Shown one piece after another: positions 7,724-51,226 of a stretch of 64,000 nucleotides of DNA (position 1 is the stretch's first letter; every line of letters starts with the position of its first letter). A program made the translations under genes and the position numbers. A model generated the notes under the pieces. It saw only the letters and a program-made list of their open reading frames with translations, ran no database searches and was not told the DNA's origin. The stretch lies in NCBI GenBank assembly GCA_008273105.1, contig GCA_008273105.1_4080.1; one strand, written 5' to 3'. Source of the stretch: a phage.

Positions 7724-7849
7724 TCAATTATACCGACAATCTTCCAAATTTTTTAAAAATATATTTAGTATGTGTACTGATTCCAACTGAGTTAAAACTA
7801 TTTTACTGACATCTTGTATTGTTTTTTTTAGTATTTCTTCCATATCCAT
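7724..7849 (-). CDS. small hypothetical protein (41 aa)
   Basis: ATG preceded by AAAGGAA 4 nt upstream; below track size cutoff. Confidence 0.35.
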   Translation of the reverse strand: MDMEEILKKTIQDVSKIVLTQLESVHILNIFLKNLEDCRYN

Positions 7850-7894
7850 AATGTTCCTTTATAACATCAATATAAAGGTATTTAATTTTAATCA

Positions 7895-7920
7895 ATAAAA
7901 AAGGGAACCAAAAGGTTCCC
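7895..7920 (-). terminator. rho-independent terminator after tail sheath gene
   Basis: Stem GGGAACC/GGTTCCC with 4-nt loop, followed on minus strand by T6. Confidence 0.7.
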
Positions 7921-7928
7921 TTAGTGTT

Positions 7929-10592
7929 TTATTGAGTTTTCTCGATACGGATTGGTACGTAAATGAAGTTAATACTCTTAGTTGGTTGAATTGCAATATC
8001 CATCCAAAGTTCATTACGGTCAATACGCTCTGCGGTGTTGTTACTTTCATCACAAACCACTGCGAAGTTATAAAGACCCTGTTGTTGAACAATTTCAGCC
8101 AAGAAGCTATTAACTACACCACTAAATTCCTGACGAGTACTTGGAGTATTCAAACGGAATAGGAATGGTTCGGAAATAATTTCTAGTTGACGACGAATAT
8201 AAACAACTAAACGAGCAACGTTAACACGACTTAGTGCAGAAGTTTGATTAGCAGATAGAGTTTTATCTCCATAAACAAGCAAACCACGGTTAGGACGCAT
8301 TGCAATTGGGTTAATGTTGTTAGTATACATAACGTCACGTTGACCTTGGTTGTATACTACTGGTTGATATTCACCTTCGCTGTTGATAAAACCAGTACTT
8401 GCAGCGTTTGTTACAACACCACGAGTTGTACCAGCAGGTGGATACCATACATAACTAACACTATCACTGTATGCATATGTACGCATTGCAATAGTACTAC
8501 CAGGAACTGCAACTTCTTCACCATCAACGTTAGTACTTAGACACCAACCCATATACTGAGCAGCATAATCATAAGCAGTTGTACGACCAACTGAACCGTT
8601 ACTTGGTGCATTGTTAGCATTAGTAGCCCATTGTTGTACAGCACTACCGTTTCCGGTTGGATTCAAACGTGCTGGAACGTCAGTAACAATAAATGCAGTT
8701 TCTTTACGATCAGTGTTTAAAGTTACACATTCATCAAGTGTTTCAACGTAACCAGGTACACAAATTAGGTTAAAATCAATAAATTCAGAACGAATGTCAT
8801 CATTACCAATAATAACAGCAGCTAGTGCTTCAACTACTAGTTGACGTTGTGCAGCACGACCAAATAGGCCAGCACCATCAAGACTTACACCACTAACAAC
8901 TTCCCATTGACCATTAACCATTTTCTTAACAACACCTTCAGTGTTACCTAGGTCAACTGCAAGCATACCATTTTGATACAATGCCGCCGCAGGAACTTGG
9001 CTTGGGAAATTAAAGTCTTGGAAAATCATACCATTTAGTGTACTTTGGTCAGTACTGTCAAGTTTAACCCATTCACCATCAACGTTGCGATAGAAATCAT
9101 AACCATCAATGCCTTGAGACAAAGGACAAACCCAAATTAAACGGTCAGCCGCTGGTTCATCAACTTGTACATATTTGTTTTCTTCTTGTACTAGATCCCA
9201 ATCATCATTAGCAACATCAGCAACATACATAGTTACAGTTAAATTATCGGAGTTCCCGAAATCATACCAGAGAGTTCCTTCTTTTGCTACACTACGTGGT
9301 ACTGAATAACTAACACGGAAGTTATTAACGTTAATTAGAGAGTAGTTGTTACTATCTACAGTTAGTTTTTGTAGTTCAGATTCAGCAAAAATATCATCAC
9401 CACTTTGTGTGATTTTGAAACTGTAACCTTTTGTATTGGAAACAACTAAACCACCATTAGTTTCACGTTTAAATTTAAAACCATCGTTAATAATTTCAGC
9501 ATTTGCATTTAGATTATTGATGATAGTTTGGGTATTAATAACACCGCCTTGTGGAACTGCTAGTACTTTAACTGATTTATTCAAATAAACAAAAGTCATA
9601 TAGCTATCAGCACCTGCTTGTTCAATAATAGTTTCACCAAGTGGCAAAGCAGGAGCACTAATTGTTGTTAGTTTTGCACTTTGAATATAGAAAGAGAAAC
9701 TCTTACTATCTTCATCAAAACGAGATGCGATATAACTATTGTTTAGTACACCACTTTTCGCTTCAATTTCTTGGAATGAATTACCAGTATATGCTGGTAC
9801 AATATTCCAAACTTGAGTTAGGGATGCATAACGTTTAATAACAAAACGAGTACCAAAATAGTTTGAACCATTTTGGGTGTAACCATCACGAATCCAAATG
9901 TTACCTTTTTCTACAGTTGAGCCAACTGGAACTTTGTTAATTGGTGATAGGTAAGTTTCCATTTGCACTAGCCCAGAAGCAGAACGTTTATACATTAGCA
10001 TCTGACCATTGCTTGGTTTGTAACGTAGAACTAAATCATCAACATTTAAACCTACTAGACTTACATCTTCAACTTCTTCAGCACTTACAATAGTTACTGG
10101 CTTAAGTTGCCAATCATAAAAACTGCTTGGACTATCTTTCTTCGCTACATACGCTTCTACTTGTGATTGTGCGGTATCAAACCACAAAGTACCATTGGAT
10201 ACTGGGCCAGTTGGTGCTTCAGCACTTGGTGCTAGTTGTGCTAGATCGATATCAGCACGAATTACATATGCACGGTTAGTAATGCCTAGATAAGAATATA
10301 CTGCATGTAGGCCATATTCGTTTAGTTCATCACCTTGAACAACAGAACCGTTATTCATTTGAAAAATTGGTGTACCATAGGTATCAAGTGAGCTTTTTTG
10401 TGATGTTAGAAGCTGTAGTTTTCCAGCGTTTGCTTTAGTAGTTCCCGCAGCAATTGCACTGCTTCCTGGGACAAGTTTGTCTTCAGCAGTAGCGATTACA
10501 AATAGTGGTACAGTGCCAGGAGCAGCAGCGGTACTCATACTTTCATCAGTTACTGAAATGGAAACGCCAGGTGAGAGTAGATCTCCTGCCAT
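7929..10592 (-). CDS. tail sheath protein
   Basis: 887 aa; conserved sheath C-terminal domain (LVYGDKTL...RVNVARLVVYIRRQLE...); GGAGGA RBS. Confidence 0.85.
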   Translation of the reverse strand: MAGDLLSPGVSISVTDESMSTAAAPGTVPLFVIATAEDKLVPGSSAIAAGTTKANAGKLQLLTSQKSSLDTYGTPIFQMNNGSVVQGDELNEYGLHAVYSYLGITNRAYVIRADIDLAQLAPSAEAPTGPVSNGTLWFDTAQSQVEAYVAKKDSPSSFYDWQLKPVTIVSAEEVEDVSLVGLNVDDLVLRYKPSNGQMLMYKRSASGLVQMETYLSPINKVPVGSTVEKGNIWIRDGYTQNGSNYFGTRFVIKRYASLTQVWNIVPAYTGNSFQEIEAKSGVLNNSYIASRFDEDSKSFSFYIQSAKLTTISAPALPLGETIIEQAGADSYMTFVYLNKSVKVLAVPQGGVINTQTIINNLNANAEIINDGFKFKRETNGGLVVSNTKGYSFKITQSGDDIFAESELQKLTVDSNNYSLINVNNFRVSYSVPRSVAKEGTLWYDFGNSDNLTVTMYVADVANDDWDLVQEENKYVQVDEPAADRLIWVCPLSQGIDGYDFYRNVDGEWVKLDSTDQSTLNGMIFQDFNFPSQVPAAALYQNGMLAVDLGNTEGVVKKMVNGQWEVVSGVSLDGAGLFGRAAQRQLVVEALAAVIIGNDDIRSEFIDFNLICVPGYVETLDECVTLNTDRKETAFIVTDVPARLNPTGNGSAVQQWATNANNAPSNGSVGRTTAYDYAAQYMGWCLSTNVDGEEVAVPGSTIAMRTYAYSDSVSYVWYPPAGTTRGVVTNAASTGFINSEGEYQPVVYNQGQRDVMYTNNINPIAMRPNRGLLVYGDKTLSANQTSALSRVNVARLVVYIRRQLEIISEPFLFRLNTPSTRQEFSGVVNSFLAEIVQQQGLYNFAVVCDESNNTAERIDRNELWMDIAIQPTKSINFIYVPIRIEKTQ

Positions 10593-25237: not shown

Positions 25238-25666
25238 TTAGTTAATAATAAAGGTAATTTCAGGATTCATTTCAGAAACTGCATTGCGTTTACTTCTATC
25301 CCATAGTATTCTGTTATTATACAAAGAAGAATCACATACTACAAGTAAGCAATTTCTTAATCTACTTACAGTACTTTGATTATTTAAATCAGTTTCTGAA
25401 ATAAAAAATACATTTTCAGGAACTACTAAAGGAATAGATTTATCAAAAAACAAAACTACAATAGGTCTTGTTGTATGAACTGATTTAACGAAATCCAAAA
25501 TACTATTATAAAAATTAGTTTCTTTAGTAATTACTGACGGATCTTTAATTCTTTTCAAATATTGCTGTGGTAATTGATGTTCGTCTTTTATCTGAAACTC
25601 AAAATATTCTTTGAATAACATTTGTGTTAATTCGGATTTATCGGATATTTTCGTTGTGTTACTCAT
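25238..25666 (-). CDS. hypothetical protein
   Basis: 142-aa ORF. Confidence 0.5.
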   Translation of the reverse strand: MSNTTKISDKSELTQMLFKEYFEFQIKDEHQLPQQYLKRIKDPSVITKETNFYNSILDFVKSVHTTRPIVVLFFDKSIPLVVPENVFFISETDLNNQSTVSRLRNCLLVVCDSSLYNNRILWDRSKRNAVSEMNPEITFIIN

Positions 25667-25868
25667 TCACTTCGTTCTCTCGTAACTCAAGAAGTCACTG
25701 CGTTTACTTCGTAAACTAGTTCCTTCTGAAAATGATAATGTACTTTAAAAACTTGACGGGATTTGTTGAGGACTATTACATCCCCCCGCAGGGGAATGAA
25801 GGTAATAAAAAAGAGACAATTAAGTCTCTCTTGACGATGATGGCATCGGATATTATCGAATTGCGAAT

Positions 25869-25898
25869 TTCTCAAATTTTGGACGGATCTTTCTTGTA
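25869..25898. repeat. 30-nt motif copy 1 (TTCTCAAATTTTGGACGGATCTTTCTTGTA)
   Basis: Direct repeat of 26021-26050; embedded in 13-bp hairpin 25870-25912 with CTTTCTTGTA in the loop. Confidence 0.7.
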
Positions 25899-26020
25899 CC
25901 AAAATTTAGAGAGCGAAAGCGGGTTGCTCGGTTTCTCTCTATCGCAGTCATATGCAACGGTCGCTGGTCTTTTCATCAACAGCACTCAGTACTAACTCTA
26001 TTCGATCAAAGTAGTACTTG

Positions 26021-26050
26021 TTCTCAAATTTTGGACGCAACTTTCTTGTA
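26021..26050. repeat. 30-nt motif copy 2 (TTCTCAAATTTTGGACGCAACTTTCTTGTA)
   Basis: 28/30 identical to copy 1; different 8-bp stem (GGACGCAA/TTGCGTCC, 26033-26062) again places CTTTCTTGTA in the loop. Confidence 0.7.
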
Positions 26051-26356
26051 AAAATTGCGTCCGCTATCCTTGAACTCCCTTAGCAAATCTGGTAAGGTGC
26101 GAACCTTATACATCTATCTAGGAACTCTCTGTATGCTTATCGGAGTTCTTTATACAGCCGTGTCGCCGTGATTCGTGGTCTTACATCGTGTTTGTTTGAA
26201 TGCCAGTACTCTAACAGGTTTCTTCTGCTGTTCGCTACAACGGTAAAGCTCATCTATCCTTTACATTTTCAAGAGAAGTAGGTTCTCAGTGTCCATTTTT
26301 CAATGTCCGTTGTCATTTTCTATATACATTATATCATTGGAACATATAATGTCCCA

Positions 26357-26755
26357 TTACATGTATACTTTTTTTAAATCCTTAGAACAACGATCAAAAA
26401 TTGTGTTTATGAATTCAACATCTTCGATAATATTCGAATCGTTAGCAACATTTTCATTTCTTGTCGTGTTCCTATATGTGTGTTCAGGATGATTGTATAC
26501 CACCTTGACTACATTATTTAGGTCTATAAAATTTGACGTTTTTTGCGTATATGAAGCCTGAAGCTTGATGAGTTTACCATCATTCTCAAGATTGGTTTTA
26601 TGAATTAGTTCTTCAATACCAGTTAAATGGCTATAGCTATCTTTTTCTTTTACAAAAGTAATAGTAACAAGAACTGCTTTCTCATCTCCCATATCGGAAA
26701 TGTTTTTTACAGCACTGATAATTTCTAAGTTTGAAAAATCTAATTCTTTAAGCAT
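26357..26755 (-). CDS. hypothetical protein
   Basis: ORF 26357-26833 trimmed to Met27, which abuts the upstream stop (TAAAATG coupling). Confidence 0.45.
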   Translation of the reverse strand: MLKELDFSNLEIISAVKNISDMGDEKAVLVTITFVKEKDSYSHLTGIEELIHKTNLENDGKLIKLQASYTQKTSNFIDLNNVVKVVYNHPEHTYRNTTRNENVANDSNIIEDVEFINTIFDRCSKDLKKVYM

Positions 26756-26756
26756 T

Positions 26757-27113
26757 TTACAAATATTTCCACAAAGTTCGATAAGTGATAATTTCTTCTC
26801 TGGTAACAGAAACTTCATTGCACTTAACACCATCAGTTTCAGTACTGAATGGTTGTACTGGTCTATCTTCTGTTAAACCTCGTTCATAAGTACAATGATA
26901 AAACTTATTTGTGCTCATGTCAAGAAATACGAGATCAAATTCTTCAGTCCACCTTCTGTGCCCTTTGCTTTCATTGCAGATGATTTTATATTTTACATCT
27001 GGTTTAAAAGTTTCAGTACTGTCATCCCATGCACCATAGTCAGTATATTCATCATTTTCATCTAACTCTGCTAGATGCCACATTAATTGTGGTAAAAAGA
27101 TTTTAGATTTCAT
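26757..27113 (-). CDS. hypothetical protein
   Basis: 118-aa ORF with GGAGAAAATAA RBS. Confidence 0.5.
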   Translation of the reverse strand: MKSKIFLPQLMWHLAELDENDEYTDYGAWDDSTETFKPDVKYKIICNESKGHRRWTEEFDLVFLDMSTNKFYHCTYERGLTEDRPVQPFSTETDGVKCNEVSVTREEIITYRTLWKYL

Positions 27114-51158: not shown

Positions 51159-51226
51159 TTTATATCTCCTTCTGTATTATGATAACAACATTATATCATG
51201 TATGGGACATAATGTCCCATACAATA

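Follow-up and report, generated by a model that had tools for sequence, protein, structure and literature searches.

A predicted gene for a large structured RNA in an intergenic gap of an Asteriusvirus-type jumbo phage

The locus and its features

The DNA analysed here, hereafter the window, is a 64,000-nucleotide (nt) stretch (contig GCA_008273105.1_4080.1) from an Asteriusvirus-type jumbo phage with a genome of ~350 kb, and it contains at 25667-26356 a gap between minus-strand genes that an earlier note had singled out as a long non-coding island with a duplicated 30-nt motif and several hairpins, fit for a replication origin, a packaging site, or a structured RNA. With a probability that we put at about 0.9, this gap is composed of a promoter followed by a minus-strand gene for a family of structured non-coding RNA (ncRNA), of which homologues were present in all the RaK2-like jumbo phages examined, in 2-5 diverged copies per genome and with the same promoter type. 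Phage 121Q, for its part, possesses three copies in one orientation: copy a, which is the window copy; copy b, with the baseplate hub genes on one side and endonuclease VII on the other; and copy c, near nrdB and a methyltransferase gene. The RNA would be ~580-650 nt in length, the core of ~570 nt being extended up to ~650 nt upon inclusion of the 3' hairpins, and would fold compactly into several domains with at least three pseudoknots (PKL, Ha, and PK2). The features of the locus, in the order of the predicted transcription, are as follows.

26357-26833, minus strand: upstream flanking open reading frame (ORF); DUF7325, phrog_9016
26328-26356, minus strand: predicted promoter, with a -35-like TGGGACA (26356-26350), a 14-nt spacer, and an extended -10 TGATATAAT (26336-26328)
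25752-26321, minus strand: leader plus conserved core, ~570 nt, from the profile match, the alignments, and the structure counts
26313-26307 with 26243-26237, minus strand: pseudoknot PKL, leader ACAACGG with the loop of the stem-II hairpin; 7 of 7 pairs covary, 92% of the cells paired
26234-26281, minus strand: 5' hairpin (26281-26254), GAUGAG junction, and stem-II hairpin (26249-26234); UGAG and CG invariant
26122-26231, minus strand: domain closed by helix 26231-26227/26158-26154; helices 94-100% paired, with 4-5 covarying pairs each; it also holds, by covariation, helix 26217-26214/26169-26166 and hairpin 26148-26143/26127-26122
26075-26084, minus strand: Shine-Dalgarno-like GCUAAGGGAG with an invariant AAGGGA core, apparently single-stranded and without a conserved start codon after it
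26021-26062, minus strand: 30-nt module at site 2, with hairpin GGACGCAA/UUGCGUCC (26033-26062); the second 30-mer of the earlier note (26021-26050)
25995-26011, minus strand: hairpin with loop AUCGAAU (26006-26000), which loop forms pseudoknot Ha
26006-26000 with 25861-25855, minus strand: pseudoknot Ha, the partner AUUCGAU lying 140 nt downstream; 99.7% paired, 6 of 7 pairs covary
25855-25984, minus strand: central domain, with hairpin 25984-25980/25966-25962; helices 93.5-100% paired
25946-25942/25866-25862, 25939-25935/25919-25915, and 25912-25909/25873-25870, minus strand: central-domain helices, from covariation counts
25958-25954/25927-25923, minus strand: pseudoknot PK2, GUUGC/GCAAC; 2 of 5 pairs covary
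25869-25898, minus strand: 30-nt module at site 1, at the tip of the 13-bp hairpin 25870-25912; the first 30-mer of the earlier note
25805-25828, minus strand: optional hairpin GAGAC/GUCUC plus a run of U6-8; 5 of 5 pairs covary; missing in 16 of 46 copies
25777-25800, minus strand: conserved 10-bp hairpin UUCAUUCCCC-UGCG-GGGGGAUGNA
25752-25765, minus strand: 3' tail CAAAUC(C/U)CGUCA(A)G; invariant columns in the 46-sequence alignment
25658-25751, minus strand: A+T-rich stretch and, beyond it, C-GAA-G triloop hairpins as a 3' extension
25716-25702 and 25686-25658, minus strand: 3' hairpins GUUUAC-GAA-GUAAAC and GUUAC...GUAAC; related hairpins follow most copies
25238-25666, minus strand: downstream flanking ORF; phrog_35272

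All the features listed in the earlier note lie where it had placed them, including the CCCC/GGGG hairpin (25777-25800), which is real and conserved; what had escaped it were the minus strand, the promoter, and the circumstance that one element spans the whole gap. Of the three functions it had offered, the structured RNA is the one that receives strong support, from the covariation, the pseudoknots, and the separate promoter of each copy.

Fold, strand, and transcription unit

A structure model of 89 pairs in 18 helices was built by hand and counted on 46 RNA-sense sequences, with the outer part of hairpin Hf and helix Hx excluded from the count because MAFFT had misaligned them. Canonical pairs amounted to 96.0% as opposed to 78.2% in shuffled alignments; 62 pairs had changed on both sides, a number that none of 500 shuffles reached, their mean being 42.9; and the covariation score was 0.478 versus 0.163. 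When, as a control, the 3' partners were slid by 1-3 columns, pairing fell to 39-44% and covariation to 0.05-0.09. The minimum free energy (MFE) of the single sequence gave a z-score of -3.3. Among the helices, 26075-26072/26023-26020, which encloses the site-2 module, had all four of its pairs covarying. Certain segments are invariant and seemingly unpaired: GCUAAGGGAG (26084-26075), GAUAGAC, CACGGCAAUGCGGC, and the GAUGAG/CG junction; of these, CACGGCAAUGCGGC is the near-invariant consensus within the domain 26122-26231, where the window reads CACGGCGACACGGC.

We assigned the RNA to the minus strand because of the promoters, the G·U wobbles in covarying helices, the leader-loop pairing, and the orientation of the a and c copies, which is that of their neighbour genes. 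In the minus sense the whole model contains 277 G·U cells against 42 A·C. The hairpin 25777-25800 displays one-sided changes from U·G to C-G (UG 32 / CG 14; CG 38 / UG 7) that are valid on the minus strand only, an internal G·U of the central domain (alignment columns 515-536) alternates as GU 36 / AU 10, and further wobble alternations in that sense are UG 39 / CG 7, in two separate pairs, and AU 30 / GU 16. Read on the plus strand, the b-copies of GAP32, CBB, and L098 each have three A·C mismatches within a single helix. The plus strand had been entertained as the RNA sense upon an RNAalifold result of 29 compensatory pairs with many G·U, which assignment was overturned by inspection of the helices, the promoters, and the wobble counts; the per-strand MFE and alifold energies were ambiguous as to the strand.

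The predicted promoter (26356-26328) scored 10 of 12 in a promoter scan, with the TG present, and would place the start of transcription at ~26321; that the transcript starts upstream of the leader is indicated by the pairing of leader and hairpin loop, whose 7 bp all covary. Nearly all the family copies examined have the pattern TG(A/G)(A/G)AC-N14-TGnTATAAT at a distance of 50-75 nt upstream on the minus strand, the -35 being weaker in both RaK2 copies. TGnTATAAT itself occurs at 16 sites in the window versus 8.8 expected, with 13 of them on the minus (coding) strand, for example at 2928, 5030, 10757, 11629, 15165, 15229, 35057, 51188-51220, and 60427; the site at 51190 has 83% identity over 35 nt with the promoter region of the RNA. 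A 'divergent RpoD-like' promoter with a TGAAACG -35 was described in phages CBB and GAP32 in the paper on CBB (PMC5259590), and to that type the promoter of the RNA, along with the recurrent TGnTATAAT class, appears to belong on the likeness of the motifs.

At the other end, the 3' tail has its complement, in Mimasvirus-type copies, in the leader UUGAYGAG, and the 3' hairpins beyond it are presumably part of the same RNA, the last of them overlapping the start codon (25666-25664) of the ORF 25238-25666. The sequence ACGAAGTGA is unique in the window. The triloop hairpins that follow most copies have the loop motif ACGAAGUGA; Mimasvirus- and Eneladusvirus-type copies contain in addition a conserved AUUCUUUGACAUUCGAAGAAUGGCAAAUC in the 3' region, and some copies a T4-late-promoter-like TATAAAT immediately 3' of the core. 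The b-copies end in a canonical CCAGC...GCUGG terminator with a U-run and have no downstream gene on that strand, for which reason we regard the transcription unit as autonomous. The hairpin at 25813-25828, which the earlier note had termed terminator-like, proved to be real and conserved, with its terminator-like character and U-run confined to the minus strand; the full hairpin (25805-25828) is located within the conserved RNA, and transcription evidently reads past its U-run, since the next hairpin shows C-to-U changes opposite G. In c/d-type paralogues, such as the 121Q c-copy, a strong hairpin with U6-7 lies just after the predicted start and before the leader, and is followed by AAUUGAGAAAAA, a segment able to pair with the U-run (all within the first ~45 nt); this start-site hairpin may be an attenuator or a 5' stabiliser.

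Regarding the 30-nt motif, the direct repeat (25869-25898 and 26021-26050) was reproduced at 28/30 identity, the copies being 152 bp apart, and a search with a 29-nt repeat consensus allowing at most 3 mismatches returned just two sites in the 64 kb and no match in 100 shuffles. The two copies are differently paired, as the earlier note had seen: in the first, TCTCAAATTTTGG (25870-25882) pairs with CCAAAATTTAGAGA (25899-25912) into 13 bp with one bulge, and in the second the arms 26033-26044 and 26051-26062 are 92% complementary around an 8-bp core of GGACGCAA/TTGCGTCC. In the RNA sense the motif reads GUACAAGAAAG(A/U)U(C/G)CGUCCAAAAUUU, with GUACAAUAUAGAUCCGUCCAAAAUUU as the family consensus. 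Two hairpin extensions of the RNA are optional, and the tip of one of them carries the motif. One and the same sequence reappears regardless of site, paralogue, or genus, and the conservation at the nucleic-acid level that the earlier note proposed is upheld. The pairing-up of two repeats is nonetheless not special to this locus, for most family members hold a single one: among the 46 copies the module is present at site 2 only in 24, at site 1 only in 13, at both sites in 4 (the four Asteriusvirus a-copies in the alignment, the window included), and at neither site in 5. An origin of the iteron type, like T4 oriE or that of plasmid R6K gamma, needs several evenly spaced repeats, whereas 37 of the 46 copies have one and 5 have none; by this distribution the motif is a sequence-specific module and not an iteron array, and it serves perhaps a partner or a tertiary contact. 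A long-range helix between leader and module, for which UUUUAGAUACAACU in the leaders of Mimasvirus a-copies would be complementary to the module, fails in the other subfamilies and was discarded.

Coding capacity was sought in the gap with a negative outcome, in agreement with the earlier note: its longest ORFs (87 amino acids on the plus strand, 71 on the minus) had no match in PHROGs or Pfam, while both flanking ORFs did. The lengths of the indels in the family alignments are not multiples of three, and the ORFs are not conserved, so that the decayed ORF which that note had named as a refutation of its proposal finds no support. The G+C content is 40-46% in the gap versus 25-30% in the flanks. 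Many GenBank records leave the gap unannotated, and others place spurious small ORFs in it: the small 'hypothetical protein' coding sequences that overlap the RNA on either strand (121Q gp516; JP4 CDS0603-0606; other records) are not conserved and are probably spurious. What a generic stand-alone structured ncRNA gene displays is accordingly found here, namely a promoter, compensatory changes, strand-specific G·U pairs, and no coding potential, with a terminator in the b-copies only. As to the flanking ORF 26357-26833, the mechanical call gives 158 amino acids, DUF7325/phrog_9016 begins at residue 27, and the 121Q annotation has 132 amino acids; its true start is probably at ~26755, which would leave little or no overlap with the upstream ORF 26757-27113.

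Copies in phages and in bacterial islands

The family profile matched the window with nhmmer at 25729-26298 (E = 1.5e-164). The 1 kb from 25500 to 26500 is 100% identical to phages ECO103 4-12-1, EC22.5-2, and JP4 and 99.7% identical to PBECO4, and in TH47-type phages the gap is conserved at ~96% versus ~92% for the coding flanks. With Mimasvirus, Eneladusvirus, Kaldavass, and Munch-like phages the gap aligned at 66-72% identity, and in Klebsiella RaK2 and K64-1 a core of ~50 nt was detectable by identity search; the alignment of the homologous region, which the earlier note had proposed as a check, showed that RaK2-like phages keep the hairpins and, in most copies, the motif. For Serratia phage BF, Salmonella phage 7t3, and phage EJP2 another locus matched best, through which finding the paralogues were recognised. 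Asteriusvirus genomes contain three, the window copy being one of them, and no second copy was found within the 64-kb window. A pattern scan of IMG/VR with 24 specified bases gave 44 loci, none of them outside RaK2-like contigs: RaK2 has 2 copies, 121Q has 3, and GAP32, CBB, BF, and fHe-Yen9-04 have 4-5 each; a metagenome scan with the same pattern, one spacer being loosened by a base, gave 56 loci; and in all we collected 82 distinct full-length copies. Paralogue types group together across genera, and hence the duplications would be old and the copies not homogenised. The b-copies of UE-S1 and 121Q have 94% identity and differ in the presence of the 26-nt module, along with linked changes in the adjacent helix (GAAAGC to GGAAGC with UCUCUC to UCUCCC), which pattern suggests an exchange, by gene conversion, between paralogues.

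Outside the phages, blastn was run against 5426 complete E. coli genomes, two of which proved to contain the RNA (75.8% identity over 480 nt). The copy in E. coli LR-29-1 (NZ_AP027515.1, 3478976-3479465) belongs to a ~10.7-kb island, situated between ffs and ybaA, along with a tyrosine integrase split by IS3, hypothetical genes, and the candidate defence system PDC-M45 (DuOB, DUF488, mSLOG/DUF4326); the RNA has its own TGTGATATAAT promoter there. The resemblance of this island to phage DNA is limited to the ~545-nt RNA, which is closest to the b-copy of Serratia phage BF (80.6%). Around the RNA ~2 kb are almost free of ORFs and rich in AGTAC(T) repeats; in our record of the island (L132) the RNA occupies 8911-9501, the ORF-free parts are 8217-8645 and 9500-10208, and a palindromic ATCGATCGTTAT repeat is found near 9930-9975. 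A scan of one genome per species added only Silvania hatchlandensis (NZ_JAMGZK010000045.1; 7756-8283 of record L133), and two metagenome contigs, with flanks of 48-51% G+C, provided two further copies (L150, 2510-3126; L152, 2531-3060). No copy was found in the PLSDB plasmids.

The Silvania island and both metagenome contigs share one module, in which an integrase (a large serine recombinase in two, a tyrosine integrase in the other) is followed by the RNA and then by a convergent gene for a cI-like S24/helix-turn-helix repressor. The Silvania island further encodes a UvrD/GajB-like helicase and, side by side, a DarT homologue and an ADP-ribosylglycohydrolase. In the four island copies 92-96% of the family pairs are preserved, and 9-13 compensatory changes set them apart from the BF b-copy; pseudoknots Ha and PK2 are present in all four, PKL is full in two and partial in one, and one copy retains the full TGAAACG-N14-TGGTATAAT promoter. 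By these counts of pairs, integrative bacterial islands have captured structurally intact copies of the RNA, and such islands are rare. They may be jumbo-phage satellites or phage-triggered defence islands.

Known RNAs and candidate modes of action

In a cmscan of the whole window on both strands against the 4227 families of Rfam 15 there was no match at the gathering threshold, and a scan of 25400-26600, both strands, with E up to 10 gave only chance matches to small nucleolar and long non-coding RNAs, far under their thresholds. ARAGORN reported no transfer RNA or transfer-messenger RNA (tmRNA) in the window and no tmRNA in the family loci, and the literature that we searched held no description of the element.

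Individual resemblances were pursued and set aside. The opposite strand contains GACGGGAUUUG, which resembles an 11-mer in the 5' part of E. coli tmRNA; we judged this likeness to be chance, as we did the matches of the 16-mer CGAAAGCGGGTTGCTC in IMG/VR, one of which was inside a real tmRNA and ~25 of 47 of which were unrelated (an integrase gene, for example). With the ARAGORN and Rfam results negative and the resemblance being on the non-transcribed strand, tmRNA was rejected. Group I and II introns have no Rfam match here, and each of the a, b, and c loci is flanked by complete genes, of families that differ from locus to locus. CAGAUGAG-stem-CGAA recalls the hammerhead core, but only UGAG and CG are invariant, the equivalents of G5/A6 and A13/A14 vary, and Rfam gave no match. 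For a ToxI-like RNA of a type III toxin-antitoxin system we saw neither a tandem repeat array nor a conserved neighbour gene; as a Shine-Dalgarno sequence for a mini-ORF, GCUAAGGGAG is followed by AUG in some Mimasvirus copies only; and for a sponge of the CsrA type, GUACAAG is like the consensus from systematic evolution of ligands by exponential enrichment but is without the following GGA.

The closest systems differ from the element in one respect or another. It is like ROOL, GOLLD, OLE, and raiA in its size class (0.5-0.8 kb), with many covarying helices plus pseudoknots and invariant unpaired nucleotides; ROOL and GOLLD also share the association with phages or prophages, and all four were likewise of unknown function when first described. 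It differs from them in having no match to their Rfam models, in being hosted by virulent enterobacterial jumbo phages, in its 2-5 diverged paralogues at fixed positions, and in its copies in integrative islands. The pRNA of phi29 is likewise a structured phage-encoded RNA with pseudoknots, those of pRNA being loop-loop, and is part of a phage machine; it is, however, 174 nt long, single-copy, and from a small podovirus, and nothing links the window RNA to packaging. In PA5oct, a Pseudomonas jumbo phage related to the RaK2 group, RNA-seq revealed ncRNA001-004 of 0.24-0.62 kb (PMC7318152). The 3' end of ncRNA004, with a hairpin, UUAUUAC, and a C/G-rich hairpin (UUCCUUCCC-AAAC-GGGGAGGAA), resembles the window at 25828-25777 by eye; homology with the PA5oct RNAs was rejected because nhmmer gave nothing significant, the best E being 0.035 over 48 nt. 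On these comparisons the element would be a previously undescribed class of large RNA without known relatives, and its mechanism may prove to be a variant of a known one.

As to what the RNA does, the account to which we incline, at somewhat less than even odds, is that it acts in trans as a folded molecule or as a scaffold or sponge in a ribonucleoprotein (RNP). We favour it because of the complex fold, the invariant loops, the module, and the autonomy of the b-copies and the island copies. Among large RNAs, those in which many pseudoknots and invariant loops come together have mostly proved to be ribozymes or assemblies of RNP or RNA alone, as with RNase P, tmRNA, OLE, ROOL, and GOLLD. Under such a scheme, the host RNA polymerase would transcribe the RNA from the extended -10 promoter; the unpaired invariant segments (GCUAAGGGAG, GAUAGAC, CACGGCAAUGCGGC, and the GAUGAG/CG junction) together with the module loop would form a binding surface; the partner bound there would come from phage or host, with the RNA serving as an RNA-protein enzyme, a scaffold, or a sponge; the multiplicity of the gene would provide dose or a slight diversity of specificity; and the islands would keep a copy in order to exploit the partner or to jam it during jumbo-phage infection. 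Certain observations weigh on the other side. The paralogues stay at syntenic positions without homogenising, which behaviour fits a position-dependent role in cis better than a dosage-driven one in trans; the a- and c-copies have no terminator directly after the core and continue into downstream genes; no gene is consistently adjacent to the copies, and the analysis brought to light no partner protein, ligand, or target; and for the RNA gene as such, we found no expression data for these phages in the literature.

A transcribed origin of replication, in which the RNA would be a structured pre-primer akin to ColE1 RNA II or to the R-loop transcripts of T4 oriF/oriG, strikes us as unlikely. The primer for the leading strand would then be the 3' end of the RNA, hybridised to the A+T-rich DNA just past the core, and the phage replisome would amplify the islands. 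Such a role would suit the 2-5 dispersed copies at conserved positions and in one orientation, each with its promoter, a multiplicity that recalls the T4 origins; the A+T-rich stretch present, in the copies displayed, downstream of the conserved 3' tail; and the capture of the RNA segment alone by integrative islands. RNA II, at ~550 nt, is of similar length and is likewise a promoter-driven non-coding transcript (predicted as such here), and A+T-rich DNA just downstream along with portability into other replicons is common to the element, to ColE1, and to oriF/oriG. T4 has at least 5 origins, of which oriF and oriG join a sigma-70-like -10 promoter to an A+T-rich unwinding element and enable plasmids to replicate in the course of infection (PMC3016281), the latter property being a precedent for a portable origin. 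Those R-loop origins, however, need ~100 bp and no specific RNA sequence or fold, and their A+T-rich element is adjacent to the promoter (PMC3016281), whereas here the A+T-rich stretch comes after the core, ~570 nt away from the promoter, and a 570-nt RNA with three pseudoknots would not be predicted. Moreover, the element is more G+C-rich than the genome, no antisense regulator like the RNA I of ColE1 was found, and the GC skew is without an inflection at the locus, which test is weak for phages that replicate by recombination. The origin that the earlier note had offered fails as an iteron array, the motif being usually single, and survives in the form of a transcribed pre-primer RNA.

To a promoter-proximal RNA acting in cis, whether through antitermination like that of HK022 put RNA or of EAR RNA, through 5' protection, or through control of the downstream start codon, and serving in the islands as a phage-triggered switch, we assign the same low likelihood. 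The element is always at a fixed distance from one promoter class; the a-, c-, and x-copies lie upstream of same-strand genes; terminator-like hairpins with U-runs occur inside or just before the RNA and are evidently read through; a 3' hairpin overlaps the start codon at 25666; and in three of the four islands the RNA is convergent on the gene for the cI-like S24 repressor, which read-through could silence. The likeness to put/EAR extends to a structured RNA just after a promoter, to more than one paralogous copy per genome, and to the reading-through of downstream terminator-like signals. Against these points, the b-copies run into a strong terminator, beyond which the genes lie on the opposite strand, and they have no downstream operon; the downstream genes differ among the copies; and in the c/d-copies the U-run hairpin precedes the core, which is then unable to suppress it. 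Known antiterminator RNAs are of 70-120 nt, the window RNA is five to eight times larger than put/EAR, and no similarity to the latter was detected.

An element of DNA alone, with protein-binding iterons or cruciforms as an origin or packaging site and no functional RNA, is far less probable: the conservation of the motif whatever its pairing, and the related AGATACAAC found inverted in some leaders, would suit it, but the strand asymmetry and the compensated long-range pseudoknots are what a single-stranded RNA of one sense leaves behind, the module is missing from five family members, and 2-5 dispersed copies per genome make the packaging site of the earlier note, which should be unique, unlikely. 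Least probable of all is a decayed or unrecognised protein gene, or a divergent form of a known RNA (tmRNA, group I or II intron, hammerhead, ROOL, GOLLD), in favour of which there are the small ORFs annotated in some GenBank records and the tmRNA-like and hammerhead-like sequences, and against which stand the coding, Rfam, and ARAGORN results given above. Even pooled, an element of DNA alone, a decayed ORF, and a known RNA family remain very improbable.

Few large RNAs combine several pseudoknots with invariant loops, and the predicted RNA would be a core feature of a whole clade of phages of ~350 kb. Therapeutic use of these phages is under development, with E. coli, Klebsiella, Salmonella, Cronobacter, and plant pathogens as targets. 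If the RNA were an origin RNA after all, it would be the first conserved origin determinant for the RaK2-like group. The capture of the element by islands with its fold kept points to its use, by mobile elements or bacteria, against or alongside jumbo phages. We venture, as a doubtful but attractive proposal, that the RNA is what helper and parasite have in common in a relationship not recognised before, in which the enterobacterial islands are satellites of RaK2-like phages or defence elements triggered by them and have captured an essential phage RNA, either so that the phage would activate, replicate, or disseminate them or so as to jam it, and that this RNA belongs to a new catalytic or self-assembling class. 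To our knowledge neither jumbo-phage satellites nor RNA-based decoys have been described, and the island copies may offer a handle on either.

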